Part shown: positions 1 through 52,857 of the stretch, piece by piece
Layout: each line of letters starts with the position of its first letter
How positions within the stretch are numbered: position 1 is the stretch's first letter
DNA from: a virus
Taxonomy: Duplodnaviria > Caudoviricetes
Length of the DNA stretch: 52,949 bases
Virus record (IMG/VR): IMGVR_UViG_3300006119_000827
Span: 1 to 52,949 of that record
Direction: 5' to 3' (one strand)
Made by a program: the position numbers and the translations under genes
The notes under the pieces: generated by a model
What the model was told of the DNA's origin: nothing
Databases searched by the model: none
What the model saw: only the letters and a program-made list of their open reading frames with translations

Positions 1-345
1 ATCGTCCGCCAGCACGCCAAGGAGAACAAGTTTCTGTATGTTCACCATGAGACTACCTTGCGGCATTACCCAGCGCGCGACGTAGCGCCTACTCCCGTCG
101 AGAAAGTGTATATCCCCAAGCTCAAACGGGCTGCGCCGCTCATGGCCACCATACTGGTGGCGGGCACAGCGGTGCCGAGCCAGTGGACGCAAGATAACCA
201 TCCGATTGGGTATTTTAGCGGCCACGCGTCGTTCTACGCGATACGGTTCAGCGACCCCGACCAGTTCAAGCACTGGTGCGACCGGCTAATGACCAACCCC
301 GAGTGCATCAAGGCACTGGGGTTTACCCCAACGGGTAAGCCCTGA
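1..345 (+). CDS. hypothetical phage protein, 5'-truncated by window edge
   Basis: The frame of ORF 58..345 has no stop back to base 1; its stop overlaps the next ATG (TGATG). Confidence 0.6.
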   Translation: MVRQHAKENKFLYVHHETTLRHYPARDVAPTPVEKVYIPKLKRAAPLMATILVAGTAVPSQWTQDNHPIGYFSGHASFYAIRFSDPDQFKHWCDRLMTNPECIKALGFTPTGKP

Positions 346-716
346 TGGTGGAGCATTGGACCACCGCTGCCCGAACCATCGCTGAGCAAACCTTGGGCCG
401 CATGAATAATATCTTCTCAAGCGCGGAGTCTATCGGGCTTGCTGAATACCGTCTCGCCAAGATCCTCGAATACGCCCGCAGCATAGGGAACCCCGACATG
501 CCCCGCAAAACTTACACCATCACACTACGGGTGGATTACAACACCCAAGACAAGGTTGAGATCACCACCAAGCTGGTGCGTCAGGCGGCGCGCAGGTTAT
601 CCACGCAGGTAAACCTGATCGCTGACAAGCGTAAGCCTCAGATCGCTGTGGAGTCCGAGGACTTCTTCATCGGCACCGAGCAGATCGACCTGGCTGTGAT
701 GGACGACGAGGTATAA
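345..716 (+). CDS. hypothetical phage protein
   Basis: 123-aa ORF coupled to the upstream stop; acidic C-terminus; no recognised motif. Confidence 0.6.
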   Translation: MVEHWTTAARTIAEQTLGRMNNIFSSAESIGLAEYRLAKILEYARSIGNPDMPRKTYTITLRVDYNTQDKVEITTKLVRQAARRLSTQVNLIADKRKPQIAVESEDFFIGTEQIDLAVMDDEV

Positions 717-723
717 CGCGCTC

Positions 724-1089
724 TCATCCAGCATCCACGTCCACCATACCAAGCGCACGCTTTAGCTCGTGAAAGTGCCTATCCAAATGCTGCTCCAGCC
801 GGATGATTACCTCGTGATCCTGCTGGTCGATGACGAGGTTCTTGATTGCCCGGCGACGGTCTACCTGAGCTTGGCGATTGGCCGATAACAGCAATATCGG
901 ACCCGTGAACGCCGCCTGAATCGACAGGAACAGGTTCAACAGGATGAACGGATACTCGTCAAAATGGGTGATACCCAAGACGTTGACCGTTACCCATATA
1001 AGTAATATCCCGGTCTGGATTAGGATAAACTTCCACGACCCGATAATACCCGATAGTCTGTCCGCCAGCCTCTCAGAGTATGACACCAT
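724..1089 (-). CDS. DUF1003-family membrane protein
   Basis: ERLAD..GSWKFI..FDEYPFILLNLFLSIQAAFTGPILL.SANRQ is the DUF1003 signature; ATG 1089 has GAGGGT upstream. Confidence 0.8.
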   Translation of the reverse strand: MVSYSERLADRLSGIIGSWKFILIQTGILLIWVTVNVLGITHFDEYPFILLNLFLSIQAAFTGPILLLSANRQAQVDRRRAIKNLVIDQQDHEVIIRLEQHLDRHFHELKRALGMVDVDAG

Positions 1090-1181
1090 AACACCCTCAG
1101 ACGTTTGGATGTTTATACTTAATTCTACCACCACGTTCAACTAATACACGCCACCAACCACAAAGGTAGGAGAACATATAC

Positions 1182-1460
1182 ATGGACGACATTACCCTTA
1201 AAGGTAACGCCATGAAGATGGCGATGATCCTCGCACCCGACGAAGTGTTCAGGCCCGGCACCAAGTGGATACTTAACAGAAAATTCGAATCTGGAGCACC
1301 GCTCAGAAAGGGCAAGGTCGTCGTAAGTAAGGGTCTATGTGTTCACGAGGATTGTGTTGACGAAAAACACCACATAACCTTCAACGCCGTTGATCGTGAC
1401 GGCTACACGTCCGAACATATTACTTATACGAAGGACTTGCTCCCCTATACAGGGGAGTAA
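1182..1460 (+). CDS. hypothetical protein (paralog of the 3592..4005 C-terminal domain)
   Basis: AGGAG SD; LAPDEVFRPGTKW segment resembles LAPREAFTPGTLW. Confidence 0.65.
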   Translation: MDDITLKGNAMKMAMILAPDEVFRPGTKWILNRKFESGAPLRKGKVVVSKGLCVHEDCVDEKHHITFNAVDRDGYTSEHITYTKDLLPYTGE

Positions 1461-1491
1461 TCATCACTACCTAACAGCCTCCACCCGCCAC

Positions 1492-1512
1492 CCACCACCA
1501 CCACCACCACCA
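1492..1512 (+). repeat. (CCA)7 microsatellite in a gene leader
   Basis: Read directly; immediately precedes the palindrome copy at 1513. Confidence 0.9.
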
Positions 1513-2927: not shown

Positions 2928-3014
2928 GGCGAATACCTAAGTAGTCGGTAAGTAGCCGGTGTACCAGTGTAGTACTACGTACTACACTGGCCGCTTACCC
3001 ACATAGGTATAGAG

Positions 3015-3662: not shown

Positions 3663-4005
3663 GGGAGGATTCACGGACAAGCTCCGCAACAGCACACGGA
3701 GGCTATTTCGTATGGCCGAGCCAAGCGGGAAATTCGAAGAATACATCGAGCACAAGCTAAGTGAAAAAGCGATGGTCTGCGCGGCGTTACTGGCTCCAAG
3801 GGAAGCGTTCACCCCTGGTACTTTGTGGACATGCACCGAGGACTCTCCCATGTGCGCGAACGTGCATAATGGAGACATAGTAAAGATCCAGAACATATCG
3901 CACGAGTACCCGGACGGGACGATAATACTACTCGCGGATACTCCCGATGTTACGGGCTGGTACATCCCGGCGACTTCACTCAAACCCTATTACCCACAGA
4001 GGTAA
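3592..4005 (+). CDS. hypothetical protein
   Basis: ATG 3592 with GAGG upstream; the stop TAA lies inside a palindrome copy. Confidence 0.6.
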   Translation: MKIGDTSLWMHNLHLRPDIREMTRGGFTDKLRNSTRRLFRMAEPSGKFEEYIEHKLSEKAMVCAALLAPREAFTPGTLWTCTEDSPMCANVHNGDIVKIQNISHEYPDGTIILLADTPDVTGWYIPATSLKPYYPQR

Positions 4006-4007
4006 TC

Positions 4008-4394: not shown

Positions 4395-4419
4395 CAACCC
4401 CATACCCACAGAGGTAACC

Positions 4420-5139: not shown

Positions 5140-5163
5140 CTCTTACCCACAAAGGTAACCACC

Positions 5164-6085: not shown

Positions 6086-7924
6086 ATGCAAAAAATCTTC
6101 GTAGATGTGGAGACCTACTATGACAAGGATTACAGTCTCCGAAGGATGACACCCATCGAATACATTAAAGACCCGCGCTTTGAATGTATTGGTTGGGCCG
6201 TTTCTAGAAATGGACTTAGCGGGTTCATGGAAGAAGATGAGTTCCGGGAGTTCTTGTTTACCCTACGGGGTAAGCGAATCGCGATGATCTCGCACAACGC
6301 GCTCTTTGATATGAGCGTCTTGGCGCAGAGATTCGACTACACCCCCGACCTGATGATCGACACGCTGGGCATGGCTCGCGCCATGTGGGGGCACAAGTAT
6401 CAACGCCTCTCGTTGGAGATTTTGAGCCTGCAACTCGGGCTTGGGGTCAAGGGCGACGTGCTGCCCTTGCTGTCGGGCATGAGCAAAGCCGCCATCATCC
6501 AGGCGGGCCTGTGGAACCGGCTCAAGGCCTACGCCGTCAACGACTCAGATTTGTGCGAGAAGATCTACCACCGTGCGATGGACGAGGGCTTTCCCGCCAG
6601 CGAGATCCTCGTCATGGATAACGTGCTGCGATGTGCGGTGAACCCGCAATTCCAGATCGACCGCACGGTGCTGGCTGAACACCTCGCGATTACCCAACAG
6701 GGTAAGGAACAACTCCTCGCAGCGTGTGGGATGAACGACCGCGACGCGCTTATGTCGAACGAGAAGTTCGCGGCTGCGTTGCGGAACCTGGGTGTGACCC
6801 CGCCCCTGAAGCGCTCGCTGCTGACCGGCAACCAGACCTATGCGTTCGCCAAGACCGACTTGGCGTTCCAGGCCCTCGAGGAACATCCCGACCCACGGGT
6901 GCAGACGCTTGTCTCGGCACGGCTTGGCCTCAAGTCCACCATCGAGGAGACGCGCACTCAACGCATGATCAACATCGCCAACCTTGCGTGGGACGGCGAG
7001 CCCCTGATGCCCATCCCCCTCAAATACGCGGGCGCTCACACGCACAGGCTATCGGGCGACTGGCGGATCAACATGCAGAACCTTCCCCGTGGCGGGAAGC
7101 TGCGCAATGCGCTGCTGGCACCCCCTGACCTAGAGATCGTGGTCGCGGACGCCGCTCAGATCGAAGCACGCGGCGTGGCGGTATTCTGTGGCCAGGCCAA
7201 CCTGGTGCAAGCGTTCAAGGACAAGCTCGACGTGTATTCGATGTTCGCGTCCGAGGTGTTCGGTAAGCCCGTAAACAAGCGGGACAACCCCATTGAACGC
7301 TTCATTGGTAAGACGGGCATCCTCGGGCTGGGGTACGGCGTAGGCGCTCCGAAATTCCAGGACACCATCAAGACCAGCTCGAAAAATCAAACCGGCACGC
7401 AGGTCGATATGTCGGACCTCGAGGCCTCGAACACGGTCAAGAAGTACCGGGAGCTTTACCCCTGCATCCCGGCGATGTGGAGGACTCTGGACAAGGCCAT
7501 CCCCATGATGACCGACAAGAAGTGCTTCATGCAGATCGGCCCCATCAAGATCGAGTTCGGGCGCATCGTTCTGCCCAACGGCCTGACGCTGAACTACCCC
7601 AACCTTCGACGCGAAGAAACCGGCTGGGTGTTTACCTATGCGGGTAAGACCAAGCACCTCTATGGCGCGAAGCTTCTGGAGAACATCATCCAGGCCCTCT
7701 CCCGTCTCGTGGTGATGGAAACCGCCACGCGTATCCGGGTCAACTACCAGCATAAATTCGTCATGCAGGTCCACGACGAGCTCGCTTACTTGGTCCCTCG
7801 TGGCGAGGGAGAGTCGTTCAAAAACCTTCTGATCACGGAAATGTCGGTGCCTCCGACCTGGATGCCCGATTGGCCGCTTGCTGCCGAGGGTGAGGTTGGC
7901 CGCAGTTACGGCGAAGCTAAATAG
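6086..7924 (+). CDS. polA: DNA polymerase family A with 3'-5' exonuclease domain
   Basis: Exo motifs DVETY and HNALFD; motif A DAAQIEAR; motif B RFIGKTGILGLGYG; motif C VHDE. Confidence 0.95.
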   Translation: MQKIFVDVETYYDKDYSLRRMTPIEYIKDPRFECIGWAVSRNGLSGFMEEDEFREFLFTLRGKRIAMISHNALFDMSVLAQRFDYTPDLMIDTLGMARAMWGHKYQRLSLEILSLQLGLGVKGDVLPLLSGMSKAAIIQAGLWNRLKAYAVNDSDLCEKIYHRAMDEGFPASEILVMDNVLRCAVNPQFQIDRTVLAEHLAITQQGKEQLLAACGMNDRDALMSNEKFAAALRNLGVTPPLKRSLLTGNQTYAFAKTDLAFQALEEHPDPRVQTLVSARLGLKSTIEETRTQRMINIANLAWDGEPLMPIPLKYAGAHTHRLSGDWRINMQNLPRGGKLRNALLAPPDLEIVVADAAQIEARGVAVFCGQANLVQAFKDKLDVYSMFASEVFGKPVNKRDNPIERFIGKTGILGLGYGVGAPKFQDTIKTSSKNQTGTQVDMSDLEASNTVKKYRELYPCIPAMWRTLDKAIPMMTDKKCFMQIGPIKIEFGRIVLPNGLTLNYPNLRREETGWVFTYAGKTKHLYGAKLLENIIQALSRLVVMETATRIRVNYQHKFVMQVHDELAYLVPRGEGESFKNLLITEMSVPPTWMPDWPLAAEGEVGRSYGEAK

Positions 7925-7960: not shown

Positions 7961-8013
7961 GTACAAAATAGCACAAAATAAAGCGTTGACATCGCTCAAT
8001 TCCTGCACATCTT
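7961..8013 (+). promoter_or_regulatory. sigma70-like promoter with upstream ACAAAATA direct repeat
   Basis: TTGACA at 7986-7991, 16-bp spacer, CATCTT; two ACAAAATA copies 10 bp apart in 7961-7980. Confidence 0.5.
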
Positions 8014-8039
8014 ATTGCCGAAGGTTCACAATAACCACC

Positions 8040-8351
8040 ATGGCAAATAACAGCATGACCAAGAAAGATAGCCTTTCGGATCACGAAATACTTAGGTTTC
8101 GGCAGGAATACCGGCTGACGGAAATGCAGACCATCCTGTTGAATGCCTTCCTGACTAATCCTATCGTCACCGAAGACTTGCTCCGGGACAAATACGGTAT
8201 CAACCGGAACCATCAGGTCTTCATCCATCGACTTCGCCTGAAGCTGACGCCCAAGGGGGTCAATATTCAGTCGATGCGAAGCCTCGGGTATTGGATCTCT
8301 CCCGAGGATAAGCGGGCCATGTTCGAACTCACCAAAGAACTGGCGGACTAA
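8040..8351 (+). CDS. stand-alone OmpR/PhoB-type winged-helix DNA-binding protein
   Basis: LTEMQ..LL..F, VFIHRLRLKL, IQSMRSLGYWI match the Trans_reg_C pattern; no receiver domain. Confidence 0.75.
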   Translation: MANNSMTKKDSLSDHEILRFRQEYRLTEMQTILLNAFLTNPIVTEDLLRDKYGINRNHQVFIHRLRLKLTPKGVNIQSMRSLGYWISPEDKRAMFELTKELAD

Positions 8352-8394
8352 ACCACCACCACCACCCCCAATAACTACCCACAAAGGTAACCCC

Positions 8395-8664: not shown

Positions 8665-9111
8665 GTGGAACGCACTGAACTCTGGCATCGGCGGTTTCTG
8701 GATTTAGCTGGATTGGTGGCGTCGTGGAGCAAAGACCCCTCCACGAAGGTCGGGGCGGTGATCGTCCGTCCCGATCGCACCATCGCAAGCGTGGGCTATA
8801 ACGGCTTCCCACGCGAGACACGCGACGATCCGAAGCTCTACGCAGACAAGACGACTAAGCGTTTACGCATCGTCCACGCCGAAGCCAACGCGATCTTGTC
8901 GGCCCGAACGCCCCTGTCAGGATGCTCCCTGTTCGTCACTGAACTTCACCCGTGCAGTCAATGCGCGGGTTTAGTGATTCAGGCCGGGATCAAACGGGTC
9001 ATCCACAACATGGAGCGTGAACCCGGTGAAGCTTGGCAAGCAAGCTTTGACGAAGCTGCGCGGATGTTTTCCGAGGCTGGGGTCCGGGTCATCTCCTACC
9101 CACGCAGGTAA
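8665..9111 (+). CDS. dCMP deaminase
   Basis: SKDPSTKVGAVIV, GYNGFP, HAEANAI, PCSQC zinc motif. Confidence 0.93.
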   Translation: MERTELWHRRFLDLAGLVASWSKDPSTKVGAVIVRPDRTIASVGYNGFPRETRDDPKLYADKTTKRLRIVHAEANAILSARTPLSGCSLFVTELHPCSQCAGLVIQAGIKRVIHNMEREPGEAWQASFDEAARMFSEAGVRVISYPRR

Positions 9112-9115: not shown

Positions 9116-9550
9116 ATGGGGTCAAGAGTATTGCCGCCATTCAAACCCGATTACCAAGAGGCGCTGAACATGGCTTCGAGTCCTATAAATCCCCACCCCC
9201 CAGGTACGCTCAGTTCCGGTAACCTCGGCTCCAATAGTCTCTTGGGGGCTCAATACACCCCGATGAGCAGCACGCTGGATGATCGCCGGATGATGGAGGC
9301 GTTGTCGGATCAGGGCGCTATGTTCGCAAGGCGGCGGTTGGATCTCACGCTTACCGAACGGGTATGCGTGCGGATGAAGATCCCGCGTGAAACCGACCTC
9401 CCGTTCAAACACTTTCACGCGTTCGAAATGGATGGGACGGTGTTTGTCGTTGTCGCCAACAACTCCAACAAGCCGGTGATGCTTGAAGACGACGCGGCGA
9501 TGTTCCCGTCCGATAGCCTTATGTCCAAGTTGGCCGTGCTGAGAAGCTAA
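9116..9550 (+). CDS. hypothetical phage protein
   Basis: ATG 9116 follows the AGGTAA leader; C-terminal LEDDAAMFPSDSLMSKL. Confidence 0.65.
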   Translation: MGSRVLPPFKPDYQEALNMASSPINPHPPGTLSSGNLGSNSLLGAQYTPMSSTLDDRRMMEALSDQGAMFARRRLDLTLTERVCVRMKIPRETDLPFKHFHAFEMDGTVFVVVANNSNKPVMLEDDAAMFPSDSLMSKLAVLRS

Positions 9551-9554: not shown

Positions 9555-10184
9555 ATGCAAGTTACCCTCATAGATAAAATGGGCACGGACCTGACTGTGG
9601 TGAACGCGGCGCGTGTATCCTTTGCCAAAGAGCACGACCGGATGCTGCTGGCTGACGAGCAGTTGATCCAATATCTGGCCCGCCATAACCACTGGTCGCC
9701 CTTCGCTCACGCGCAGCTTAGCTTTCGTGTGAAGGCTCCGATCTTCGTGGCCCGCCAACTCGGCAAGCATCAGGTTGGGCTTGCCTGGAACGAAGTCAGC
9801 CGCCGCTACGTGGACGACGAACCCGAGTTTTTCGAACCCAAGGTGTGGCGTAACCGCGCCATCAGCGCCAAGCAGGGATCGGGCGACGAGGCCGTGGAAG
9901 TGGGCTTGGTGCCCACCCTCGCCCTGGCCTACGCCATCAAGGCCTACAACGAGCTCTTGGGCCGTGGCGTGTGCCCTGAACTGGCCCGCATGGTCCTGCC
10001 GCAGTCCATGATGACCGAGTGGATCTGGACCGGCTCGCTCTATGCGTTTGCGCGGGTGTGCAATCTCCGTCTGGACACGCACGCGCAAGCCGAAACCCGT
10101 GAGATCGCCGCCGACATTGCGGACATCGCAGCCCAGGCGTTCCCGATCTCGTGGGAAGCCCTTACCCGTGAGGTAACCCCATGA
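9555..10184 (+). CDS. thyX: FAD-dependent thymidylate synthase
   Basis: VVNAARVSF, HWSPFAH, APIFVARQ..KH..NEVSRRY, E.ARMVLP, HAQ.ETR. Confidence 0.95.
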   Translation: MQVTLIDKMGTDLTVVNAARVSFAKEHDRMLLADEQLIQYLARHNHWSPFAHAQLSFRVKAPIFVARQLGKHQVGLAWNEVSRRYVDDEPEFFEPKVWRNRAISAKQGSGDEAVEVGLVPTLALAYAIKAYNELLGRGVCPELARMVLPQSMMTEWIWTGSLYAFARVCNLRLDTHAQAETREIAADIADIAAQAFPISWEALTREVTP

Positions 10185-12835: not shown

Positions 12836-12874
12836 CCAACACTCAAACCCACACCCAAACCCACAGAGGTAACT

Positions 12875-13135: not shown

Positions 13136-13197
13136 CCCACACTCGCCACCACGAGTAAGTCCCTCACCCACACCACCACATACCTACAGAGGTAACC

Positions 13198-14657: not shown

Positions 14658-14672
14658 CGGTTACCTAAGCAG

Positions 14673-39217: not shown

Positions 39218-39240
39218 TGTGCTGGACCCCCGTTACCTGC

Positions 39241-40278: not shown

Positions 40279-40635
40279 CTACGACTGGATAGTTAGGAGT
40301 TGCGAGACGAACTTGTTCAGGAACACCGCCGAGCGGGCATCCTGAGTGTTTTCCTCGTCGCGTAGCTGGGCCTGACCGCAGACGTAATAGAGAAGCGCCA
40401 CCCGGTACTGCGGATCATAGGTCACCGAAGCCGCCGTGCTGGTCGGGTCGTAGGTTGGGATCGACGTGCGAAACGTTGAAGCGACGAGATCAGGCCGCAG
40501 TCGGCGTGTCTCAAGCAGGCCCATATTCAGGGCTTGGACAAGCTCGGCGTCAGAATAGCGATACGCCCCTGAATACGTATCTTGCAGGAGCGTACGAGCG
40601 CCGTTGATGTAGTCCTGGACCGTATCAAGAGCCAT
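40279..40635 (-). CDS. head completion/adaptor protein
   Basis: AR.LLQD....RY.D.EL...LN.G......RPD. Confidence 0.65.
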   Translation of the reverse strand: MALDTVQDYINGARTLLQDTYSGAYRYSDAELVQALNMGLLETRRLRPDLVASTFRTSIPTYDPTSTAASVTYDPQYRVALLYYVCGQAQLRDEENTQDARSAVFLNKFVSQLLTIQS

Positions 40636-40656
40636 CGGTTACCTCGGCAGGTAACA

Positions 40657-41758: not shown

Positions 41759-42838
41759 TTAACTGCGAATGAGCCCCTCTCGATGCGCGTCGAAAATAGA
41801 CTGTTCGATGCGTGCCTTTTCGGCGTCCCGACCACGGAATTTTCCCATCCGTACGTCGCCGTAGAAGGCTTCGATCTGGGCTCGCGACCACTGGGGCTTC
41901 TCTGTGGGGGCATCCGCCGCCGCAGTCTTCGCTCTGCTGGGTGCCGCTAGACTCTCCAGCGGGATCTGAGCCTTACGCGGCTTAGGATCCGGCTGGCTCG
42001 CTACGGGAGCCACAGCAGCCTCTTCAGTAAGGAAGCCACTGAAGAAGGCCGCGACACGAGGAGCATTGTTCTGCTCGTACGCGTCCTTCAACATAGTATG
42101 CCTAATAACACCAGAATAAGGGTCTGGCAAGGACAACCAATCAATAAAGTTCTTATTCTCATTTAGTTCACGCCACTGGGGCATGTTCTGGTCAAGACTT
42201 TCCAGCATCCGGGTTCTATTGTCGGCAACTACGTGACCAGTAACGCCGGTCAACTTGGCCTGTAGATCCGCCAGCTTATTACGCAGATCCGCCACTTCCG
42301 GCAGGACTTCTTCTTTCGCGCGCTTGCCGACTACCGACAGGAACTCTTGCCCGTACTCGTTCTCTTCTTCCGGGGTCAGGAACTTGGTGGACGCGCTCGA
42401 ACCACTGAAGGGAGCCTTGGCCTGGCTCTGCTCCTGGAGAGTCGCAACCATGTTCTGGAGGTTTGCGACCTGCTCCGAAAGTATAGCCACCTGGGAGTTG
42501 GCGCGGTCAAACCGCCCCTTCATGGAGTTATACTTGTGCTCCCAGGTGCTATCGTTACCTGTCTGGGTAACCGACTCCTTGGGTTCCGGCTTGGAATCCT
42601 GGGTCGGGGTCGGGGTCTGGGTCTGACCCTGGTCGTTCTGGAAACTACGAGCGTCTAGCTCCGCAGGAATAGATTCCTGCGTGTTCTCCGTGGTGGGTTC
42701 GGCCTGGACCTCAGTTGTGGGTTTGGTATCGGCTTTGCCGTAGGCGGCATTGTGAACGAGGGTTGCTCGCTCAGAAGCAGCGCGTACAGCCGCCGGGATA
42801 TGGACGTTGGCATCGTCAATCGGGGTAGTTTGGGTCAT
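41759..42838 (-). CDS. putative scaffolding protein
   Basis: Disordered N-terminus, WEHKY.S.KGR, coiled coils; directly upstream of the capsid gene. Confidence 0.7.
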   Translation of the reverse strand: MTQTTPIDDANVHIPAAVRAASERATLVHNAAYGKADTKPTTEVQAEPTTENTQESIPAELDARSFQNDQGQTQTPTPTQDSKPEPKESVTQTGNDSTWEHKYNSMKGRFDRANSQVAILSEQVANLQNMVATLQEQSQAKAPFSGSSASTKFLTPEEENEYGQEFLSVVGKRAKEEVLPEVADLRNKLADLQAKLTGVTGHVVADNRTRMLESLDQNMPQWRELNENKNFIDWLSLPDPYSGVIRHTMLKDAYEQNNAPRVAAFFSGFLTEEAAVAPVASQPDPKPRKAQIPLESLAAPSRAKTAAADAPTEKPQWSRAQIEAFYGDVRMGKFRGRDAEKARIEQSIFDAHREGLIRS

Positions 42839-44100: not shown

Positions 44101-44418
44101 TTAGCCCTTGCCGCTGGTCGTGCCGGGGACGGCCGTGTTGGCGGATTGCGGGCCGAACATCTTCGTGCTGCCGCCCTTGGCGAACTTGCCGCCGTCGCCA
44201 CTCTTGCCGAACGCAACATCGGGTGCGGACGGGCCTGCGGCCTGTTTGCCGAACATCTTGCCCGAGCCGCCCTTGGCGAACTTGCCGCCGTCGCCGCCCA
44301 TCCCAATCGAAACACCCGGCGAAGACGGACCGGCGTGCTGCGGGCCGAACATCTTCGTGGTACCGCCCTTGGCGAATACCTTCTGGGTAACCTTGTCTTT
44401 GTTGGCTGACACTTTCAT
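44101..44418 (-). CDS. basic Gly/Lys-rich protein with three FAKGG..KMFG repeats
   Basis: Internal repeats are visible at both DNA and protein level. Confidence 0.7.
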   Translation of the reverse strand: MKVSANKDKVTQKVFAKGGTTKMFGPQHAGPSSPGVSIGMGGDGGKFAKGGSGKMFGKQAAGPSAPDVAFGKSGDGGKFAKGGSTKMFGPQSANTAVPGTTSGKG

Positions 44419-44728: not shown

Positions 44729-46815
44729 GGGCCTCCTGCAATGCGGGTGCGTGGACCCATGTCCTGTGTGACCGGGCTGGACTGCTGACCGCCTTGCGCC
44801 TGGGCCGCGTTGTCACCCATGCCGCCATGCCCCGGCATACCCTGGGACTGGGCGACCATCGCGGCTTGCTTCTGCTGAGCGGCAATCTCGTCGGCGCTGG
44901 GCACAATCTCTTCGCCGGGCATACCCAACGTGGAGGCAACCGAGCGCAAAACCGTGGCGCGACCCTTGGGACCGACGATCTGCATGTCGATGGGGTTTGC
45001 GGTGGCCTGCAAGAACTCCATCTGGCGGGCTCGCTGGGTTTCCTTCTGCATGGCAACCGCCACGCCGAGCACCCGGATGTTCTCTTCCCCGGTGAGCATA
45101 CCCGTCTCATCGGTAAGCATGATCATGTCGAACAGCGCCAAAAGCAGTTGCTCGAGCACGTCACGGTCAATGTTGGCGGCTACCGTCTGGAGGATCTTGG
45201 AGGCGTTGCCCATAAGCATCGCCAAGCCACTCGCGGTGCGCCCTGCCCCACCAGCGGTGTTACCCGACAGGTATTTCGGAATGCCCGAGAGCTCGTCGGC
45301 CATCTCGATGAACTGACCATACACCGTGAGCAGTTCTTGAGCGTTGGACGCGGGCTGAAAGAAACTGATCGGAACCTGGGAGTTGTTCCCCATCGGATCG
45401 GTCTGGACGTGCCAGCGCTTCCACGGATAAAGCTGCTCGCCGTCTTCATCGGGCGACAGGCGGTCATCGTTGACCACCACCTGCGGACCCGAACTGATCG
45501 AAAGATTATTGATCAACGCGCGCAGCGTCGCGTTGGATGCTTCCTGAATGTCGTTCAGGATATCCGGCAAGCCGTTACCAACGACGGTGCCAGGCACCTT
45601 CTCGAACGACGTGACAAAATAAGGATGGCGGCGGCGCGGGCTCGGAGACAGCTGGACCTTGATCACGTACTGACCGATGAGCCACGTCTCGACGTAGTAG
45701 TCGCGCATGTCGTCTTTGATCTGAGCGGGGTCCATGCCCTGCTCGATCAACATGCGGCCCTGGACGTTGCCCGTGAACTTCAGGCAGGTGATCAGGCCGG
45801 ATTGGTTTAGGTGCGGGTTCTCACGGCTCTCTTGCGTGGCCCGCTCGGTGTCCGTCTGGTCCCAGTCCTGGACCAACCCACCACGGCCATAGAGATCCAA
45901 TACCTCGCGGATGGCATTCTGGTCGTAACCGGGCAAATCCAAGAGGTCGTTCAAGTCGGCGCGCGTCAGTCGCGTGCGCTCGATGACGTCGGCGTCTTCG
46001 ATGGCGGACACACCGGGCGTCCACCAAATATCGAAGGGCGACACCCGGCTCCAGAACAAGCGAGGTTTTTGCGTGACGACGGGCTTGTTACCTTCCCAGG
46101 TAACTTCCGGGACGATACGGACTTCCGGCCCTTTGATGCACGCAAACGGGAACAGTGGCAGGTCCACAAGGAACTCAGCCAGCGCCTTATAGAACCCGCC
46201 ATCCTTGAGGATCTGGTCGATCCGGTCGCCAGCGATGGCGGCTTGGTCGGCGGCTTTCTTCTTGGCGGCCTGACGCGCAGCCTCCTTAAGCTGAAGCATC
46301 CGGTCGTTGGTCTGGTCGGGATCGGCGGGCTGACCGCTGGCCTGAAGGCTTGCACCCTCGGCCTCTACAAGTTGATCTATCGAGTCCAGGACATCTTGGG
46401 GTATCTGTGGGTCGTCCGGGGGCTGCAAGCTCCAAGGACGCTCGGGCGACAAGTATACATCGCGTAAAAGCGAGAACGCGCCCCGGCATTTCATGGCAAT
46501 GACGCGGGCGTATACTTCAGAACCGCCGAATTTACGGATTTCAGCGATCTTCGAGGCGTCGTATTGGCCATTAAAGGCCCGCATCGCACTCAGTAGCCGC
46601 TCGGACCAGCCTGCCGCGTTGTTATTGCGGTGGCGCTTCATGATGTCGAACTGGTGGCGGACATAAGCAGCCAGACCCGACAGCTCAGTATTGGAGCTCG
46701 CGTCTTCAGCGGCGGCGCGAGCCTCGTCCTGTGCTTTCAGCGCAATACTTAGCTGTTCTGGCCCAACAACGCGAAGAATCGCGCCGTTTTGCTTATCCAT
46801 CCAGTCGGCTCCCAT
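44725..46815 (-). CDS. portal protein
   Basis: About 690 aa, first gene of the head operon; VSPFDIWW.P, G.GLPD...DIQ, ADE.SGIP.Y, RTASGL.ML; the start may be 46800. Confidence 0.85.
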   Translation of the reverse strand: MGADWMDKQNGAILRVVGPEQLSIALKAQDEARAAAEDASSNTELSGLAAYVRHQFDIMKRHRNNNAAGWSERLLSAMRAFNGQYDASKIAEIRKFGGSEVYARVIAMKCRGAFSLLRDVYLSPERPWSLQPPDDPQIPQDVLDSIDQLVEAEGASLQASGQPADPDQTNDRMLQLKEAARQAAKKKAADQAAIAGDRIDQILKDGGFYKALAEFLVDLPLFPFACIKGPEVRIVPEVTWEGNKPVVTQKPRLFWSRVSPFDIWWTPGVSAIEDADVIERTRLTRADLNDLLDLPGYDQNAIREVLDLYGRGGLVQDWDQTDTERATQESRENPHLNQSGLITCLKFTGNVQGRMLIEQGMDPAQIKDDMRDYYVETWLIGQYVIKVQLSPSPRRRHPYFVTSFEKVPGTVVGNGLPDILNDIQEASNATLRALINNLSISSGPQVVVNDDRLSPDEDGEQLYPWKRWHVQTDPMGNNSQVPISFFQPASNAQELLTVYGQFIEMADELSGIPKYLSGNTAGGAGRTASGLAMLMGNASKILQTVAANIDRDVLEQLLLALFDMIMLTDETGMLTGEENIRVLGVAVAMQKETQRARQMEFLQATANPIDMQIVGPKGRATVLRSVASTLGMPGEEIVPSADEIAAQQKQAAMVAQSQGMPGHGGMGDNAAQAQGGQQSSPVTQDMGPRTRIAGGP

Positions 46816-46893: not shown

Positions 46894-47388
46894 TTGTCCG
46901 ATCTTCCGGCGATCATCTCCCCTATAAACGATGATAGACTTGTCATTTTGGCCCGAGAAATAGCCAAAGACATGCACCCCCTCGAAACTATACTTGAAGT
47001 GAACAAAATCGGGGTTGACCAGTGGGAAACCATACAAAACAACCCCCGGTTTCAACGTTTGTTGGAGTCCGAAATCGCGGATTGGAACTCCGCAAGCAAC
47101 GCTTCCGAGCGTGTGCGGCTGAAATCCATTCACTTCGTTGAGGAGGTGCTTCCAGAGTTCTACGCGCGGGCCAATGACCCCCGTGAAAGCCTCGCCGCCA
47201 AGACCGAGGTACTTAAGACAGTCGCTCGATTTGCCGGAATTGGATCTTCCGGTGGTGAAATCGGCGGTGCGGGCGAAAAATTTACCGTCACGATCAATCT
47301 GGGCGCGGATAAATCCCTCAAGATCGAGAAGACAGTTACCCCGCAGGTAATTGAAGGCCACGCGGAGGCCGTCGATGCCAGCAATTAA
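46894..47388 (+). CDS. probable terminase small subunit
   Basis: Helical protein overlapping the TerL start; C-terminal F.VTINLG strand. Confidence 0.6.
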   Translation: MSDLPAIISPINDDRLVILAREIAKDMHPLETILEVNKIGVDQWETIQNNPRFQRLLESEIADWNSASNASERVRLKSIHFVEEVLPEFYARANDPRESLAAKTEVLKTVARFAGIGSSGGEIGGAGEKFTVTINLGADKSLKIEKTVTPQVIEGHAEAVDASN

Positions 47389-48823
47389 CTATACGGCACC
47401 GCCAACCTGCGCGAGATTCATGCGCTCGGAAGCGTTTGGGCGACTGATCGCGGGTCCGGTGGGCTCGGGTAAGACAACGGCGTGTTTGTTTGAGCTCTTC
47501 CGGCGAGCGTGCGAGCAGGCCCCTGCCCCGGATGGGTACCGCTACACGCGCTTCGCCATCGTTCGCCAAACCCTCAAGCAGCTAAAGGATACGGTTCTCA
47601 AGGATATCGTGAGTTGGCTGGCCGGGATCGCGGAGTACAAGGTTTCCGACAACACGATCTACATCACCATCGGGGACGTGCGCTCGGAATGGCTGCTCAT
47701 TCCACTCGATAACCCTGAGGACCAACGACGTCTGCTGTCCATGCAGCTAACGGGCGGGTGGCTCAGCGAGGCCATCGAGATGGACGTGAACATTATCTCC
47801 CCGCTGGCTGGACGATGCGGGCGTTACCCGTCTGCGGCACAAGGCGGCTGCACCTGGTTCGGGCTTATTGCCGACACCAACCTCCCCTCCGAGGGCACGC
47901 CCTGGCATAAATTCATGGATGTGGAGACACCGCCCGACTGGCAGGTGCTCATCCAGCCGTCAGGGATGTCCGAGGACGCCGAGAACCTTGAGTGGCTGAC
48001 ACAGACACCCGAGACACTCAAGCTGCCCGTCACGGACCAACGTCGGCGTGCCCAAGGGCGCACTTATTATGAGCGCTTCATCCGGTCCAACAGCGAGGAC
48101 TGGTGCAAGCGGTATGTGTATGCCCAGTACGGCGACGACCCATCCGGCACGGCGGTCTTCCGGGAAAGCTTCAAGGCAAGCTTCCATGTCGTGGATGAAG
48201 TACTCCCCGCCTACGGTATGCCCATCATCGTTGGGCTCGACTTTGGGCGTGACCCTTGTGCGGTCATCACGCAGGTAGACCACAAGGGAAGGTTCCTCAT
48301 CCTCGAGGAGATCCTTGCCGAAGACATCGGCCTCGAGCTCCAGCTACAGCGAGCGATCAAGCCCGCGCTGCTGCAAGAGCGTTATATGGGTCGGCCCATC
48401 GTCATCGTGGGCGATCCTGCGGGCACCAGCCGGTCCACACACTATGAAGAGACCTCGTTCGACCTCGTGAAGCGTGCGGGCTTCTCCGCGTACCCAGCGC
48501 CCACCAACGAGATCGACAAGCGCCTGCGCGCCGTGGAGGCTTACCTGCTGGCACAGCGCGATGGTGGACCCGCGATGCTCATTGACCGCCAGCGTTGCCC
48601 GACCATCGTGCGGGCGCTCAACGGCGGGTATCGCTACGCCAAGACGCGCAACGGCATCCGCAAGGCGGTACCCGATAAGAACGAGTACTCACACATTGCG
48701 GATGCCCTTCAGTACGCGGCAGTCGCGGCGCATGGCGGTATGTCGGGGATGTTGTCGTCCCGCCTGCAACGCGGGAAGCGTCAGCACGGTCGCCCGATGG
48801 TTACCGCTGGTGGGTGGACTTGA
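47375..48823 (+). CDS. terL: terminase large subunit
   Basis: Walker A GPVGSGKT, DTN coupling motif, nuclease GLDFG and HIADALQY; GGAGG SD before ATG 47375. Confidence 0.93.
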   Translation: MPAINYTAPPTCARFMRSEAFGRLIAGPVGSGKTTACLFELFRRACEQAPAPDGYRYTRFAIVRQTLKQLKDTVLKDIVSWLAGIAEYKVSDNTIYITIGDVRSEWLLIPLDNPEDQRRLLSMQLTGGWLSEAIEMDVNIISPLAGRCGRYPSAAQGGCTWFGLIADTNLPSEGTPWHKFMDVETPPDWQVLIQPSGMSEDAENLEWLTQTPETLKLPVTDQRRRAQGRTYYERFIRSNSEDWCKRYVYAQYGDDPSGTAVFRESFKASFHVVDEVLPAYGMPIIVGLDFGRDPCAVITQVDHKGRFLILEEILAEDIGLELQLQRAIKPALLQERYMGRPIVIVGDPAGTSRSTHYEETSFDLVKRAGFSAYPAPTNEIDKRLRAVEAYLLAQRDGGPAMLIDRQRCPTIVRALNGGYRYAKTRNGIRKAVPDKNEYSHIADALQYAAVAAHGGMSGMLSSRLQRGKRQHGRPMVTAGGWT

Positions 48824-49182: not shown

Positions 49183-50207
49183 AACGCCTCTTCCCACGTC
49201 CCCAGTGTGGACGCCTTGGAATACTCGGTGGAGCGGTTCTCGAAGAAGTTCGTGTGCTCCACCGCGTTCAGCATCTCATCCAGCCACGGCAGCGGGTTCT
49301 TCTCGACGTTGTAGAGCTCGTCGATACCTAGCTGGGTAAGCCTGCGATCCGCGATATAGCGGATGTAGGTCTTCACCTCGGCGGAGGTAAGCCCCTCGAT
49401 GTCCCCCTGCTCAAACGCGAGGTCCACGAACGCGTCCTCGTGATCCACGATGGTTCCGCAAATATGCTGGATCTCGTTGACCAGCTTGGGCGTCCAGAGC
49501 TCGGGGTTCTCCTGGATGAACGTCCGAAAGAGCTTGATGATCGAGTTGCAGTGCAGGGTTTCATCCCGCACCGACCAACTGACGATCTGCCCCATCCCCT
49601 TCATCTTACCGAACCGGGGAAAGTTCATCAGGATCGCGAACGACGCGAACAGCTGCAAACCCTCGGTGAATGCCCCGAACGCCGCCAGCGTCTTGGCGAT
49701 CTCATGCTTGGACTTCACGTTGAAGCTTTGCATGTAGTCGAACTTGTCCTTCATCGCCTTGTATTTGAGAAACGCGGCGTACTCGGCCTCGGGGATTCCG
49801 ATGGTGTCGAGCAGGTAGCTATACGCCGCCACATGGACCGTCTCGATGTTCGAGAAGGCCGACAGCATCATCAGCACCTCGGTCGGTTTGAAGACCTGGC
49901 TGTAGTGCTTCATGTAGCAGTTGTTCACCTCGACGTCGGCCTGGGTGAAGAACCGGAAGATCTGGGTGAGTAGGTTGCGCTCGCCATTGGTGAGGTTAAC
50001 CGACCAATCCTTCACGTCTTCAGCGAGAGGGACTTCCTCGGGCAACCAATGCACCCGCTGCTGGGTGAGCCACGCCTCATAGGCCCACTCGTACCGGAAG
50101 GGCTTGTAGACGGGGTTCTCGGTCAGCAGGTCGATCTTAACGGGTTGTTCCTCGGGTGCGGGCGAGGGCGCGGGTTGGGTTTCGGGCCGATCCAAAACGT
50201 CACTCAC
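49176..50207 (-). CDS. nrdB: class I ribonucleotide reductase beta subunit
   Basis: HWLPEEV, FFTQAD, E.VH..AY, EGLQLF.SF, RDETLH, NFFE; GTG start at 50207. Confidence 0.95.
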   Translation of the reverse strand: MSDVLDRPETQPAPSPAPEEQPVKIDLLTENPVYKPFRYEWAYEAWLTQQRVHWLPEEVPLAEDVKDWSVNLTNGERNLLTQIFRFFTQADVEVNNCYMKHYSQVFKPTEVLMMLSAFSNIETVHVAAYSYLLDTIGIPEAEYAAFLKYKAMKDKFDYMQSFNVKSKHEIAKTLAAFGAFTEGLQLFASFAILMNFPRFGKMKGMGQIVSWSVRDETLHCNSIIKLFRTFIQENPELWTPKLVNEIQHICGTIVDHEDAFVDLAFEQGDIEGLTSAEVKTYIRYIADRRLTQLGIDELYNVEKNPLPWLDEMLNAVEHTNFFENRSTEYSKASTLGTWEEAFH

Positions 50208-50475
50208 CGGCAGGCACTCCCAACTCAGACTTCGTAAACCCAACCATGTGCTTCCCCAGGTCCAGGAGCTCACCAAGAGTATAGGCGTCGGGGTCCATGT
50301 CCGTGGGAGCCACACAGGGCACGAACACAAAGCAGGTCGAGCACCCGTGGTGCATGGTGACCTCGTACCCGTGGGGGGAGGATTGGTACTCGACCTCGGT
50401 TACCCAGTCAGGTAACGCGTCCACCCAGCAAGGCCGCGCCATCCCGTAGCCCTTCCATAGTGTTATGGTGGACAT
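50200..50475 (-). CDS. hypothetical protein
   Basis: TGATG coupling with the excisionase gene; overlaps the nrdB start. Confidence 0.55.
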   Translation of the reverse strand: MSTITLWKGYGMARPCWVDALPDWVTEVEYQSSPHGYEVTMHHGCSTCFVFVPCVAPTDMDPDAYTLGELLDLGKHMVGFTKSELGVPAGE

Positions 50476-50720
50476 CAGCATGTTGCCCCAACCGATTCCG
50501 AGCGCTTGGTGAAGACCAACTGCTCCTCGATCCAGGCGTCCACGTCTTTCTGCCGGTAATAGGCTCGCTTCCCCAACCGCAGATAATCCGGGCCTTTGCC
50601 CATTCGCCGCCATTCACGAAGGGTCGTGGGCAGGATGTTAAGCATCCTTGCCAAGTCTTCAGATGCAATAAGTCCCAACGTCTTCCGTGCAGGCGTGTCA
50701 TTTTCTAAAGGAGGTATCAT
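50475..50720 (-). CDS. excisionase/AlpA-like HTH protein
   Basis: LA.ML.I...TL.EWR..GKGP.Y.RLG....Y...DVDAW. Confidence 0.85.
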   Translation of the reverse strand: MIPPLENDTPARKTLGLIASEDLARMLNILPTTLREWRRMGKGPDYLRLGKRAYYRQKDVDAWIEEQLVFTKRSESVGATC

Positions 50721-50838
50721 CGTTGTGGTGGTCTTCCCCAGTTTCTACCGATTTGGCGTCAGTCGAACGGTGCTGAGCTCGGATATAATATAAGTGTCAC
50801 TAGGCTAGACAACACGTAAGATGTCAGAAAGCCCCGCG

Positions 50839-51951
50839 TTATACTGAGGTCAGGATCGACTCGGGAGTTATGTGTGTATACCTACGCAGGTTCTCCCAGG
50901 ATTTGTGGCCGGATATGGCGGATACTTGGGGGATATTCAGGCCATGCTCAAACAACAAGCTTATCCCTTCGTGACGAAGGTCGTGAAATACTAAATCTTC
51001 TATTCCGCAAGCTTTTGTCGCCGCAGAAAAAGCATTTGCAATAGTAGATCCCATGAATGGGAAAATCCTCCCCTTGGGGTTCTCCACCTTGCGTTGACGC
51101 TCGATGATCTCGCAGGGGTCGATCACCTCCCCATTGAGCTTGAACGGTCCCTTGAGCAGCGGAACCCGCATGTCCCTGCCCCCTTTCACCGTTGGATCTT
51201 TGCGCCCCCTGATGACGACCGTGCGCGCCTTGGCGTCGTAGTCCTCCCAGGTAATCCCCCCAGGCCCGACGATCTCCCCACGGCGCATGGCGGTCGCCAC
51301 GGCGAACAGGATGATGTCTCCCGTGATGCGTTTGACGTTCTGGGCGGCTGGCCTGCTATGACACCATGACACCAGCGCAGAGAGCTCGGCTTGGGTGGGG
51401 CGACGGTCGCGGCGGTTGGACTTGGCTATGAGCCCGGCATGATCGAGCGTCTGCACGGCACGCTTTAATGTGGCCCGCGCCTCCGAGGCGTCCTTGCTGT
51501 CCAGGAAAGCCCCACCATGCTCGAGCGCCACCCCTAGATAGACCAACTCTTTCTTTATGGTGGTTGGCCCCGGTGGATGCAGCCGACCGCCGTATCGGCC
51601 AGGGTTGAAGCGCTCCGTACTGCGTTTTTGGACGTATGCCATGATGTGCTTGGTGGTGAGCTCCGCGAGTCGTACGTCCCCCATGTAGTGTGTGATGATC
51701 GTCAGGCAGGAAAGCTTGGACGCGTGGATCTTGGCTGTCTTGGAGGTGTACTCCTCGATGATCGACCTGATGGTGTGCGGCTTGCCCTTGCCCGGCCCCG
51801 ATTCCTGCAAATCGTCAGGGGGAGCGGCTTCCTGCTCCCTCGCCCATCGCACCGCCTCAGCCTTGGACGGGAACACTTTTGAGACGGCTGGGCGATTCGC
51901 GAGACGGATGTGAGCCCGCCATCCAGAGGGGTGCTTAAGTATAGATGCCAT
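50839..51951 (-). CDS. int: tyrosine recombinase (integrase)
   Basis: N-terminal arm-binding WRA.IR...SK.F..K.EA..WA; TAMRRGE, FHDLRHE, SGHK, RY; ATG at 51951. Confidence 0.95.
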   Translation of the reverse strand: MASILKHPSGWRAHIRLANRPAVSKVFPSKAEAVRWAREQEAAPPDDLQESGPGKGKPHTIRSIIEEYTSKTAKIHASKLSCLTIITHYMGDVRLAELTTKHIMAYVQKRSTERFNPGRYGGRLHPPGPTTIKKELVYLGVALEHGGAFLDSKDASEARATLKRAVQTLDHAGLIAKSNRRDRRPTQAELSALVSWCHSRPAAQNVKRITGDIILFAVATAMRRGEIVGPGGITWEDYDAKARTVVIRGRKDPTVKGGRDMRVPLLKGPFKLNGEVIDPCEIIERQRKVENPKGRIFPFMGSTIANAFSAATKACGIEDLVFHDLRHEGISLLFEHGLNIPQVSAISGHKSWENLRRYTHITPESILTSV

Positions 51952-51999
51952 GGTGCGAAAGTCCTTTCGGAGCTCGGGTTGAGGCCCCCCGTGGGCGGT

Positions 52000-52335
52000 C
52001 CGTGCGTAATCCGTGCGTAGTTCGTGCGTAGTTAGGGGGGTATTTCGGCCAATATCAGGTGGCGGAAGACCGCTGTCAAATCGGGTTTGGTGGGGTTGTA
52101 AGGTATTGGAAAGGTTCAGGAAAATACCCTTTATCAACAGGTTGTGGATAACTCCCCAAAACCCGAGTGATCAGATTCCATAATCGCTTGAACTCCTGTG
52201 TAATATCAACGACTTAAGCGTGTTTTTGGGTAGCATATGCGTAGTCAGAGCCAATTTTCACAATATCCGGAATATAACACCTAATCAACACCTAAATAAC
52301 ACCCTAGCATACTTGCAATCTCCGTGGGTACTGCG
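52000..52335. other. attP-like region with arm-type repeats and IHF sites
   Basis: Three CGTGCGTA direct repeats at 52000-52033; WATCAANNNNTTR matches at 52132-52144 and 52204-52216; directly upstream of int. Confidence 0.6.
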
Positions 52336-52857
52336 ATCAATGTGTTGCTGCCTTCGATCCACCACTCGAGAGGTTCCCCGCCATGAGTTCATGCCCTGTT
52401 CTACGCCCTTATTGCGACCGGAAATCCGTGACCTGTTTTATATTGTAAGGTTCGGGTTAGCCGCTGCGAGGGTGTGATGGTTTAATGTTATATTGGTGTA
52501 ATGTTGGTTTTTTGGGGTTCTATATTTCCAAGGTACCACAAAAAGCACCATAGCCCCCCTGCCCCCCTGTCCATATAGGGGTGGGGTGGGGGCACGGTAT
52601 TACCCGTGCGGGTAACCCCCTTTAACTACAACAAGACCTGAGCATGACAACCTCGGGTCTCCCGATAACTGGAACGTGACTTAGTTCCAACCGCTCATTG
52701 ACATTCGAATATGGTTTCATGGCTGCATGGTGCAGCCTCGGCGGAAGTGACAATCCCGCGCCTATCGCACCATGACACGCCATGATCGGGCTCAGATTGC
52801 CCGTCCCAAAATCTGAACCTAGCCCCTTACGGGGGCTTCATAGGGTCGCGCTGTAGC

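Follow-up and report, generated by a model that had tools for sequence, protein, structure and literature searches.

A genome-wide interrupted palindrome, kept and varied in a phage family of the Rhizobium/Bradyrhizobium order

The window, its genes and its palindromes

The IMG/VR virus record IMGVR_UViG_3300006119_000827 (Duplodnaviria; Caudoviricetes) was analysed over its whole length of 52,949 bp, which is called the window below, for a dispersed interrupted palindrome, TTACC-N5/6-GGTAA. When the pattern TTACC-Nn-GGTAA was scanned for n = 0–20, it was found 28 times with n = 6, nine times with n = 5, once each with n = 11 and n = 15, and with no other spacer. The core TACC-Nn-GGTA occurred 42 times with n = 6, 12 times with n = 5 and at most twice at any other length in the same range. 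Dinucleotide-preserving shuffles of the window (300) served as the background and contained a mean of 0.03 perfect sites (maximum 1) and 0.55 core sites (maximum 3). The enrichment of perfect sites is about 1000-fold with a sharp peak at N5/N6, and 37 of the 85 TTACC pentamers of the window belong to perfect palindromes. Together with the results on relatives and hosts given below, we conclude that the palindrome is a real feature, strongly selected, phage-private and family-wide.

The record is estimated to be 88% complete, has 59.2% G+C, and is present in three runs labelled freshwater metagenomes, the only runs holding it; no RNA run is listed among them. Its genes and open reading frames (ORFs), among them a VRR-NUC-like ORF, are arranged as follows.

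1–18.5 kb, plus strand: early module with a DUF2201 metallopeptidase/VWA protein, DNA polymerase, dCMP deaminase, ThyX, a PD-(D/E)XK exonuclease, an SNF2 helicase and a 988-residue primase-helicase (DUF927)
18.6–47 kb, minus strand: module with a small HNH protein, a 2307-residue protein, internal virion proteins, tail fibre, major capsid protein and portal
18632–18949: small HNH protein gene
40696–41733: major capsid gene
Right part, after the minus-strand module: large terminase (plus strand), nrdB, an HTH_17 excisionase-like ORF and a tyrosine integrase
47351–48823, plus strand: large terminase gene
50475–50720, minus strand: HTH_17 excisionase-like ORF

The integrase and the HTH_17 ORF, together with the integrated prophages seen in two relatives (G007 and G008), indicate a temperate lifestyle.

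In total, 52.9 kb carry 37 perfect sites, 17 core-only sites (14 N6 and three N5) and eight sites with one inner mismatch; counting every site with a change at a single one of the ten specified bases gives 24, where about two are expected. An earlier, sequence-only reading of the window had counted the 37 perfect copies (28 N6 and nine N5) exactly. Its estimate of an expected number well below one and an enrichment of several hundred-fold is borne out by the 0.03 sites per shuffle, and the peak at n = 5–6 on which it relied stands against the shuffled controls. The 15 core-only copies that it reported were two too few. Seven of its eight one-mismatch forms are true, the one at 12857 carrying two mismatches, and a further single inner-mismatch site at 49606 was absent from it. 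The two pairs of identical sites that it named (11364 and 35374; 35545 and 42555) are correct. It had also placed copies in the nrdB and terminase regions: nrdB does hold one core site, at 49325, but there is none inside the large terminase gene, just upstream of which sits the site at 47336. The regular spacing and the recoding of proteins, described below, had escaped it. All sites are listed below without strand.

323–338: perfect N6, doubles as the ribosome-binding site (RBS) of the gene starting at 345
1192–1207: perfect N6, intergenic, ATG 5 nt after
1514–1527: core-only N6 (CTACC..GGTAA), RBS of the 1536 gene
1931–1945: perfect N5, DUF2201 gene; RHph_TM27A and G001 (relatives, see below) have a site at the same alignment column
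2768–2781: core-only N6 (GGTAT)
2996–3009: core-only N6 (GGTAT)
3990–4005: perfect N6, TAA is the stop of the upstream ORF, ATG 3 nt after
4403–4416: core-only N6 (ATACC), RBS position
5143–5158: perfect N6, RBS of the 5164 gene
6258–6273: perfect N6, DNA polymerase gene
6690–6705: perfect N6, DNA polymerase gene
7632–7647: perfect N6, DNA polymerase gene
8376–8389: core-only N6 (CTACC), RBS position
9097–9110: core-only N6 (CTACC), TAA is the dCMP deaminase stop, ATG 5 nt after
9352–9364: core-only N5 (GGTAT)
10162–10176: perfect N5, RBS of the exonuclease gene (10181)
10425–10440: perfect N6, PD-(D/E)XK exonuclease gene
11364–11379: perfect N6, SNF2 helicase gene, identical to 35374
12466–12479: core-only N6 (GGTAT)
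13181–13194: core-only N6 (ATACC), RBS of the 13198 gene
14074–14089: perfect N6, gene of a 325-residue protein (13680–14657)
14662–14675: core-only N6 (GGTAG), intergenic
15518–15533: perfect N6, primase-helicase gene
16374–16387: core-only N6 (GGTAG), primase-helicase gene
17273–17288: perfect N6, primase-helicase gene
18841–18855: perfect N5, small HNH gene
19440–19455: perfect N6, intergenic, downstream of the gene of the 2307-residue protein
20272–20287: perfect N6, gene of the 2307-residue protein
21336–21351: perfect N6, same gene
21759–21774: perfect N6, same gene
22567–22581: perfect N5, same gene
23451–23466: perfect N6, same gene
24376–24390: perfect N5, same gene
26163–26178: perfect N6, same gene
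26379–26394: perfect N6, same gene
27492–27505: core-only N6, gene of a 980-residue protein
29371–29385: perfect N5, junction of the genes of a 392- and the 980-residue protein
30393–30407: perfect N5, virion structural gene
31864–31877: core-only N6, internal virion protein gene
33292–33307: perfect N6, intergenic
35274–35287: core-only N6, both outer bases altered, the weakest member
35374–35389: perfect N6, identical to 11364
35545–35560: perfect N6, identical to 42555
38233–38247: perfect N5, tail fibre gene
39233–39248: perfect N6, gene junction
40639–40654: perfect N6, RBS of the gene at 40279–40635 (minus strand)
42555–42570: perfect N6, gene of a 359-residue protein, identical to 35545
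44377–44389: core-only N5
45261–45273: core-only N5, portal gene
46088–46103: perfect N6, portal gene
47336–47350: perfect N5, just upstream of the large terminase gene
49325–49338: core-only N6, nrdB gene
50400–50415: perfect N6, just downstream of the HTH_17 ORF
52600–52615: perfect N6, ORF-poor right end, upstream of the integrase
597–612: one inner mismatch (TTATC)
990–1005: one inner mismatch (AGTAA)
9562–9577: one inner mismatch (GATAA)
24642–24657: one inner mismatch (GGTTA)
28391–28406: one inner mismatch (TTACT)
30840–30855: one inner mismatch (TAACC)
33963–33978: one inner mismatch (GGCAA)
49606–49621: one inner mismatch (GGGAA)

The tightest cluster of the window comprises the three sites within 290 bp at 35274–35560, inside an ORF (35091–36668) that was not accepted by the gene caller and gave weak PHROG matches only. 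Three genes deserve a remark of their own. The 2307-residue ORF of the virion module (19493–26416, minus strand) matched only function-unknown PHROG families, and each of the six compared genomes with this region encodes a homologue, of 2307–2895 residues. The idea that it is an N4-like virion RNA polymerase reading hairpin promoters is unsupported, no Pfam family and no PDB sequence match having been found for it. The 325-residue protein beside the primase (13680–14657, plus strand) is family-wide and combines a segment rich in Cys with a long linker of mainly Pro and Ala and an acidic tip at the C-terminus; from its sequence it looks like a single-strand DNA-binding protein. The DUF1003 gene (724–1140, minus strand) is the sole opposite-strand gene amid the plus-strand early genes.

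Coding frame and spacing of the sites

The sites lie mostly inside genes and far from gene starts. The frame nTT-ACC-nnn-nnn-GGT-AAn is used by 25 of the 29 in-gene TTAC-N7/8-GTAA sites (greedy gene calls; a hand-made gene list agrees), because either of the other two would bring in an in-frame TAA or call for the rare TTA/GTA codons. The predicted proteome contains the corresponding peptide, [FLIV]-T-x-x-G-[KN], 18 times where shuffled proteins contain it 1.6 ± 1.3 times, an 11-fold enrichment distributed over unrelated proteins. As 17 of these 18 occurrences are spelled with the motif codons, where codon usage predicts 2.2%, selection acts on nucleotides. The cultured Rhizobium phage RHph_TM27A, a relative described below, has the peptide 10 times, seven of them spelled as the motif. 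When orthologues were aligned, the six motif-encoded residues faced ordinary residues and not gaps at most sites, indicating that the sites arose by point substitution rather than by insertion of an element. The price of carrying the signal has been amino-acid changes in the polymerase, helicase, primase, portal and tail proteins.

Several junctions between genes use the motif twice over: its TAA ends the upstream gene, and its GGT acts as Shine-Dalgarno element for the gene that follows. In the window, an ORF-opening ATG follows within 2–14 nt in 20 of 54 sites (37%), compared with 16% of random positions, and enrichment was also seen in the relatives G004, G001 and G002. It is absent from RHph_TM27A (8 of 44 sites; 18% vs 18% at random positions) and G005 (1 of 25; 4% vs 14%), and a role in translation start was therefore rejected as the primary function. 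Being mostly gene-internal, the sites do not behave like a Cluster K-type start-associated sequence either. In the early region of G004, where the sites are located at the junctions of tiny genes, a promoter scan found promoter-like sites no more frequently than in shuffles.

The spacing of the sites is more even than expected. For the 54 core sites of the window, the coefficient of variation (CV) of the gaps was 0.57, compared with 0.97 for random placement, and none of 5000 simulations was as low. Gaps of 800–1000 bp accounted for 17 of 53 where 4.4 were expected. Within the same, pre-set range fell 14 of the 55 gaps of G001, which carries a different motif (P = 5e-5). The core sites of RHph_TM27A gave a CV of 0.55, and in 15 other loci just nine of 209 gaps were shorter than 300 bp. 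Neighbouring sites repel one another and wide gaps seldom occur, as though several hundred bp formed the territory of each site. The preferred spacing of about 0.8–1 kb gives a quantitative hint of how far the factor acting there may reach.

Relatives, motif variants and hosts

No close DNA relative of the window is on record: a megablast search with positions 1–25000 gave no match in the phage collection. A scan of viral contigs with the primase as a single protein returned nothing, but a two-sequence primase alignment did reach relatives, namely 80 IMG/VR loci and 10 genome loci. Judged by primase-helicase, Rhizobium phages of the RHph_TM27A group are the closest in culture (42% identical, syntenic). 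RHph_TM27A has the same motif, with 26 N6 and eight N5 copies that are often extended to GTTACCT...AGGTAAC. Its 1027-residue primase-helicase homologue (L005 42248–45331) is labelled 'putative integrase protein' in GenBank; this name looks wrong, judging by the window homologue, which matches DUF927 and primase PHROGs.

Many of the loci carry the TTACC motif at 0.3–1.3 per kb, with N6 only, N5 only or both. The sequence-only reading, which had pointed to related phages as a test of the site, is upheld by RHph_TM27A and many uncultured relatives; others carry lineage-specific variants or little of the motif.

G001 / L052: TTACTC-N4-GAGTAA; ACTC/GAGT core 34 times with N4, 12 with N3 and 10 with N5
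G005 / L018: TTACTT-N4-AAGTAA
L080: TCACTA-N4-TAGTGA
G002 / L049: TCACGCCC-N1-GGGCGTGA, about 20 copies
G004 / L023: mixed TTACYY
L008: degenerate form ending in CGAGTTAC
G003: only a 6-copy 16-bp palindrome
L045: no clear motif

In L045, GCGCACTC was found seven times on one strand; it was not counted as an asymmetric variant, many loci having comparable top 8-mers. In G003, which is almost without the family motif, the 16-bp palindrome is TTCCTCGTACGAGGAA (about six copies), and CCTGCAGG occurs 21 times, where 1.8 are expected from the half-sites and about 15 from a Markov model. The outgroup relative L081 has GTCA-N1-TGAC (GTCAGTGAC/GTCACTGAC) six times on each strand in 22.7 kb, which may be a separate dispersed palindrome of the outgroup clade.

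On the primase tree, the motif trait marks one large clade, and the outgroup clade (primase 24–26% identical) is at background. Within the tree the motif switches between close relatives. The two halves of the palindrome always change together between genomes, as would be expected if one subunit type read both. The positions of the sites are mostly unshared between orthologous genes, with few coincidences, which indicates that density is maintained and not place. Among the six genomes compared, the major capsid gene is without a site in all and the large terminase gene in five.

The hosts were examined in the lysogen or carrier genomes. A Bradyrhizobium genome has nine of its 12 copies on a 60.6-kb phage contig, a Pseudolabrys metagenome-assembled genome (MAG) has 10 of 10 in two tandem prophage copies, and a Xanthobacteraceae MAG has 10 of 10 in one prophage region. 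Taken together, 29 of the 32 copies in these three genomes lie in a prophage or phage contig. A fourth genome, which gave a distant partial hit only, has the motif at background. In 121 genomes sampled from the same order there were 0–16 copies each, mostly no more than of the reversed-pattern control. The host chromosomes are nearly empty of the motif, and it is therefore a phage signal; a host-type dispersed repeat (repetitive extragenic palindrome, uptake sequence or Chi) would be abundant there. The sequence-only reading had proposed a phage-wide cis code, and this proposal is sustained by a motif that is lineage-private, is conserved or replaced by variants in relatives, is under nucleotide-level selection and is not a repeat of the host type. 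The prophage pair of the Pseudolabrys MAG (G007 contig C4, ~44–74 kb and 106–136 kb; L088, L090) consists of two copies of a related prophage with identical site patterns, 61.9 kb apart, and reflects either a tandem duplication or an assembly artefact.

Candidate readers and comparison with known systems

The reading that we prefer, at a probability of roughly 45%, is that the palindromes are sites for a phage-encoded, two-fold-symmetric DNA-binding protein acting genome-wide in units of ~0.9 kb. The protein dimer as reader, its phage-encoded origin and the effect of its binding are all inferred. The dimer would recognise the palindromes on double-stranded DNA, with each subunit reading a half-site that consists of TTACC and the pyrimidine after it. 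The centres of the half-sites are 10–11 bp apart, about one helical turn, and would face one side of the helix; this separation may explain why both N5 and N6 are tolerated. Selection would hold one site per ~0.8–1 kb in coding and non-coding DNA alike, so that the protein would act on the whole genome and not just on particular promoters. Its most likely role would be genome-wide silencing or road-blocking, or the coating and organising of phage DNA, with a specificity private to each phage lineage in the manner of immunity specificities.

A number of observations weigh against this reading. No family tracked the motif by its presence when the gene contents of seven full genomes were compared. 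The HTH_17 ORF was found in just three of seven genomes, and a winged-helix family is not supported as the reader, since its recognition helix is poorly conserved among the TTACC phages and unsorted by palindrome type. The spacer varies (N5/N6 in the window; N3, N4 and N5 in G001), which is unusual for rigid dimers and natural for loops, and the invariant 5-bp core gives no information on pairing as opposed to half-site reading. As for spacing, the perfect sites of RHph_TM27A taken alone are no more regular than chance (CV 0.93, P = 0.47), the preferred gap differs between phages (the RHph peak is at 1000–1300 bp, a range chosen post hoc), and G004 and G005 have no significant gap peak. Integrated prophages have the lowest site densities, 0.2–0.35 per kb. 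RHph_TM27A, where the motif is at full density, shows nothing homologous to the integrase of the window, so that any connection with lysogenic immunity does not hold throughout.

No reader emerged when ~50 ORFs of the window and 52 of G004 were scanned against Pfam and PHROG. The winged-helix family mentioned above is OmpR/PhoB-like (..HRLR....I.S.R..GYW..; window 7986–8351, plus strand, likely start 8040) and has homologues in 21 related sequences (19 loci, G004 and RHph_TM27A), the longer members having an N-terminal coiled coil; by its sequence it is probably a dimeric regulator. The small HNH nuclease does not track the motif either, being widely conserved irrespective of it. The reader may be encoded in the ~12% of the genome missing from the window, or may evolve too fast for BLAST.

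It is unlikely, in our judgement, that the sites are instead targets or 'self' marks of a phage enzyme, with cutting, marking or stop/go signalling rather than passive binding as the outcome. Such an enzyme could be a nickase or endonuclease (e.g. the HNH protein at 18632–18949), a modification enzyme, the terminase, or a helicase-nuclease sparing marked DNA; the system would be Chi- or uptake-like but phage-private, and duplex half-site recognition would still be possible. The even coverage at ~1 kb and the repulsion of close neighbours match a requirement per DNA segment, a palindrome serves travel in both directions, and a motif that is absent from hosts and differs between lineages fits self/non-self discrimination of competing phages. 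Dense DNA signals such as bacterial uptake sequences also recode proteins. The phage encodes the HNH nuclease, which is conserved in 46 related sequences, as well as the PD-(D/E)XK exonuclease, the SNF2 helicase and the VRR-NUC-like ORF. However, no enzyme could be tied to the motif: relatives with another or a weak motif have the HNH gene as well, and its identity is unsorted by motif. Moreover, unpaired half-sites are not enriched, 48 TTACC lying outside palindromes and the pentamer being otherwise ordinary for the composition. It is therefore the paired site that counts, and an enzyme tracking along a strand would have no need of pairs. A restriction-modification-type target of the kind that phages avoid does not fit either, the palindrome being enriched ~1000-fold instead.

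Somewhat less probable still is a small hairpin in single-stranded DNA or RNA, with a stem of 5–6 bp and a loop of 3–6 nt, that is read by a phage protein, for example as a primase-helicase entry site in lagging-strand synthesis or as an RNA hairpin masking ribosome-binding sites. Plasmid primases recognise hairpins sequence-specifically, and a spacing of ~1 kb is Okazaki-like, as suits primase-helicase entry. A variable spacer is natural for loops, the predicted RNA stability is moderate (mean −6.2 kcal/mol vs −2.3 for random 20-mers; −11.6 for the G002 variant), and the 20 window sites before an ORF-opening ATG, with GGT as Shine-Dalgarno element and TAA as upstream stop, suit a mask. Against this stands the lack of compensatory covariation. 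At the variable inner positions each half prefers a pyrimidine in every genome tested, and no excess of Watson-Crick pairs over independent halves was found at mirrored positions within any of five genomes: observed and expected numbers were 17 and 17.7 for the N6 core sites of the window, 9 and 11.5 for RHph position 2, 11 and 10.1 as well as 6 and 9.1 for G004 position 1, and 13 and 13.5 for G005. C.A combinations are as frequent as Watson-Crick pairs, and there are no purine-pyrimidine flips. An excess did appear when 16 loci were pooled (50 vs 37.8); the half-site preference differs between genomes, which would produce it.

Other points also speak against a hairpin. The strand with G.T-type combinations is inconsistent relative to transcription, the window and G004 going one way and RHph the other, so that a consistent wobble orientation was dropped; greedy gene calls were used for this after a window-scoring strand caller had given noisy calls. 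The extended RHph palindrome leaves a centre of just 2 nt, and the start-codon association is missing in RHph and G005. The primase of L008 is close to its relatives (56–62% identical to those of L014 and L007), yet the motif of that locus is different and degenerate; no specificity-determining pattern, in the form of convincing positions, was found in the primase-helicase. Half-site rules without covariation therefore favour a symmetric reader of duplex DNA over a hairpin, and of the two read-outs proposed in the sequence-only reading, the dimeric protein fits better and the hairpin is weakened.

A host factor (nucleoid protein, regulator or restriction-modification enzyme) whose signal the phage mimics or exploits is very improbable. 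The same motif does occur in phages of several genera of one order (Rhizobium, Bradyrhizobium, Pseudolabrys and the Xanthobacteraceae MAG), but the host chromosomes are almost free of copies outside prophages, the 121 genomes usually lying below the control pattern, and different motifs in close relatives are not what a shared host factor predicts. A by-product of coding and translation signals (codon usage, a repeated peptide, Shine-Dalgarno and stop modules) or a small mobile element is hardly credible: about a third of the window sites double as gene-junction modules and one reading frame dominates, but codon use predicts 2% motif-encoded peptides where 17 of 18 were observed, the 11-fold enriched peptide lies in unrelated proteins, the preferred frame is explained by the in-frame TAA or the rare TTA/GTA codons of the other two, the sites are mainly gene-internal and remote from starts, and they are substitutions with unconserved flanks whose orthologues mostly align without gaps, unlike insertions of a miniature element.

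Beyond the binding-protein reading, we consider, as a speculation that we hold to be unlikely, a 'self' code, private to each lineage, in which the palindromes also act as a physical ruler. A segment-wise phage machine would need a mark per ~0.9 kb, and relatives would diversify the mark to distinguish their own DNA from that of the host and of each other. Candidates for the machine are a nucleoprotein that spreads or bridges, a nuclease sparing marked DNA, or a packaging or replication-loading factor. If true, the code would be a phage counterpart of Chi and uptake sequences, strong enough to rewrite proteins; we know of no Chi- or uptake-like self-code system described for tailed phages.

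In any case, a 16-bp signal kept, with drifting specificity, in a large and mostly uncultured phage family of the Rhizobium/Bradyrhizobium order points to a genome-wide DNA–protein system of strong selective value that current annotation overlooks. Since the cultured RHph_TM27A carries the same motif, the question is directly testable. If the reader sets immunity or self-recognition, the motif variants would predict mutual exclusion among phages.

Many dispersed copies of one palindrome are also a feature of the phiC31 repressor inverted repeats and the RK2 KorB operators, where one palindromic operator is repeated over a mobile genome for one dimeric regulator. Those sites are intergenic, number ~12–18, lie near promoters and are not known to show even spacing or protein recoding. 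DNA uptake sequences (Haemophilus, Neisseria) and Chi occur about once per kb, lie in genes in preferred frames, affect peptides and are needed per DNA segment rather than per gene. They belong to the chromosome of the cell, lack symmetry and are read singly, unlike the window signal, which is phage-private, palindromic and absent from the host.

No published description of the motif, or of dispersed palindromes in RHph-type phages, was found in a search that lay outside supplementary motif tables; the available part of PMC13611946 describes neither the motif nor dispersed palindromes. The closest precedents are two groups of mycobacteriophage repeats, with those of Cluster O as the nearest published case and the Cluster A stoperators beside them. 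Cluster O phages carry a 17-bp dyad repeat, TGTTCGG-N3-CCGAACA, in more than 30 copies; its function is unknown, and the authors predict binding of a dimeric protein (PMC4351075). As in the window, these are over 30 short inverted repeats with a short variable centre, genome-wide and mostly off promoters (PMC4351075). The likeness is in kind only, the repeat sequence, host phylum and phage type being unrelated to those of the window. Cluster O sites are concentrated towards one end of the genome, about two thirds of them lying between genes or close to gene starts, and the phages are not obviously temperate (PMC4351075). The window sites, in contrast, are mostly in genes, evenly spaced and accompanied by recoded proteins; unlike in Cluster O, their spacer length varies and relatives differ in motif.

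The stoperators of Cluster A phages (L5, Bxb1) number 20–30 copies, are asymmetric and oriented with transcription, and bind a monomeric repressor (PMC6550527, PMC9283540); from one related phage to another, their consensus and the repressor change together (PMC6550527). Stoperators work by blocking elongation when the immunity repressor is bound; no repressor was identified in the scans of the window's ORFs. The sequence-only reading had called the palindromes loosely like stoperators but symmetric. The likeness holds for tens of copies of a short motif across a temperate phage genome, mostly away from promoters, and for motifs that differ between relatives (TTACC, TTACTC, TTACTT, TCACTA, TCACGCCC, TTACYY). 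It fails for symmetry, the window site being a palindrome, and for placement, the window sites being denser (~1 per kb), largely in coding sequence and with a preferred spacing. What asymmetry the interior of the window sites has relative to gene direction is inconsistent between phages and explicable by coding constraints, and does not amount to the orientation of stoperators.

The palindrome is thus set apart from the Cluster O and Cluster A cases by four differences: how densely it occurs within genes, the recoding of proteins, the preferred spacing, and its wide presence in a mostly uncultured family. An explanation along the same lines may apply to the Cluster O dyad repeats, and dispersed phage repeats elsewhere are worth screening for preferred spacing.

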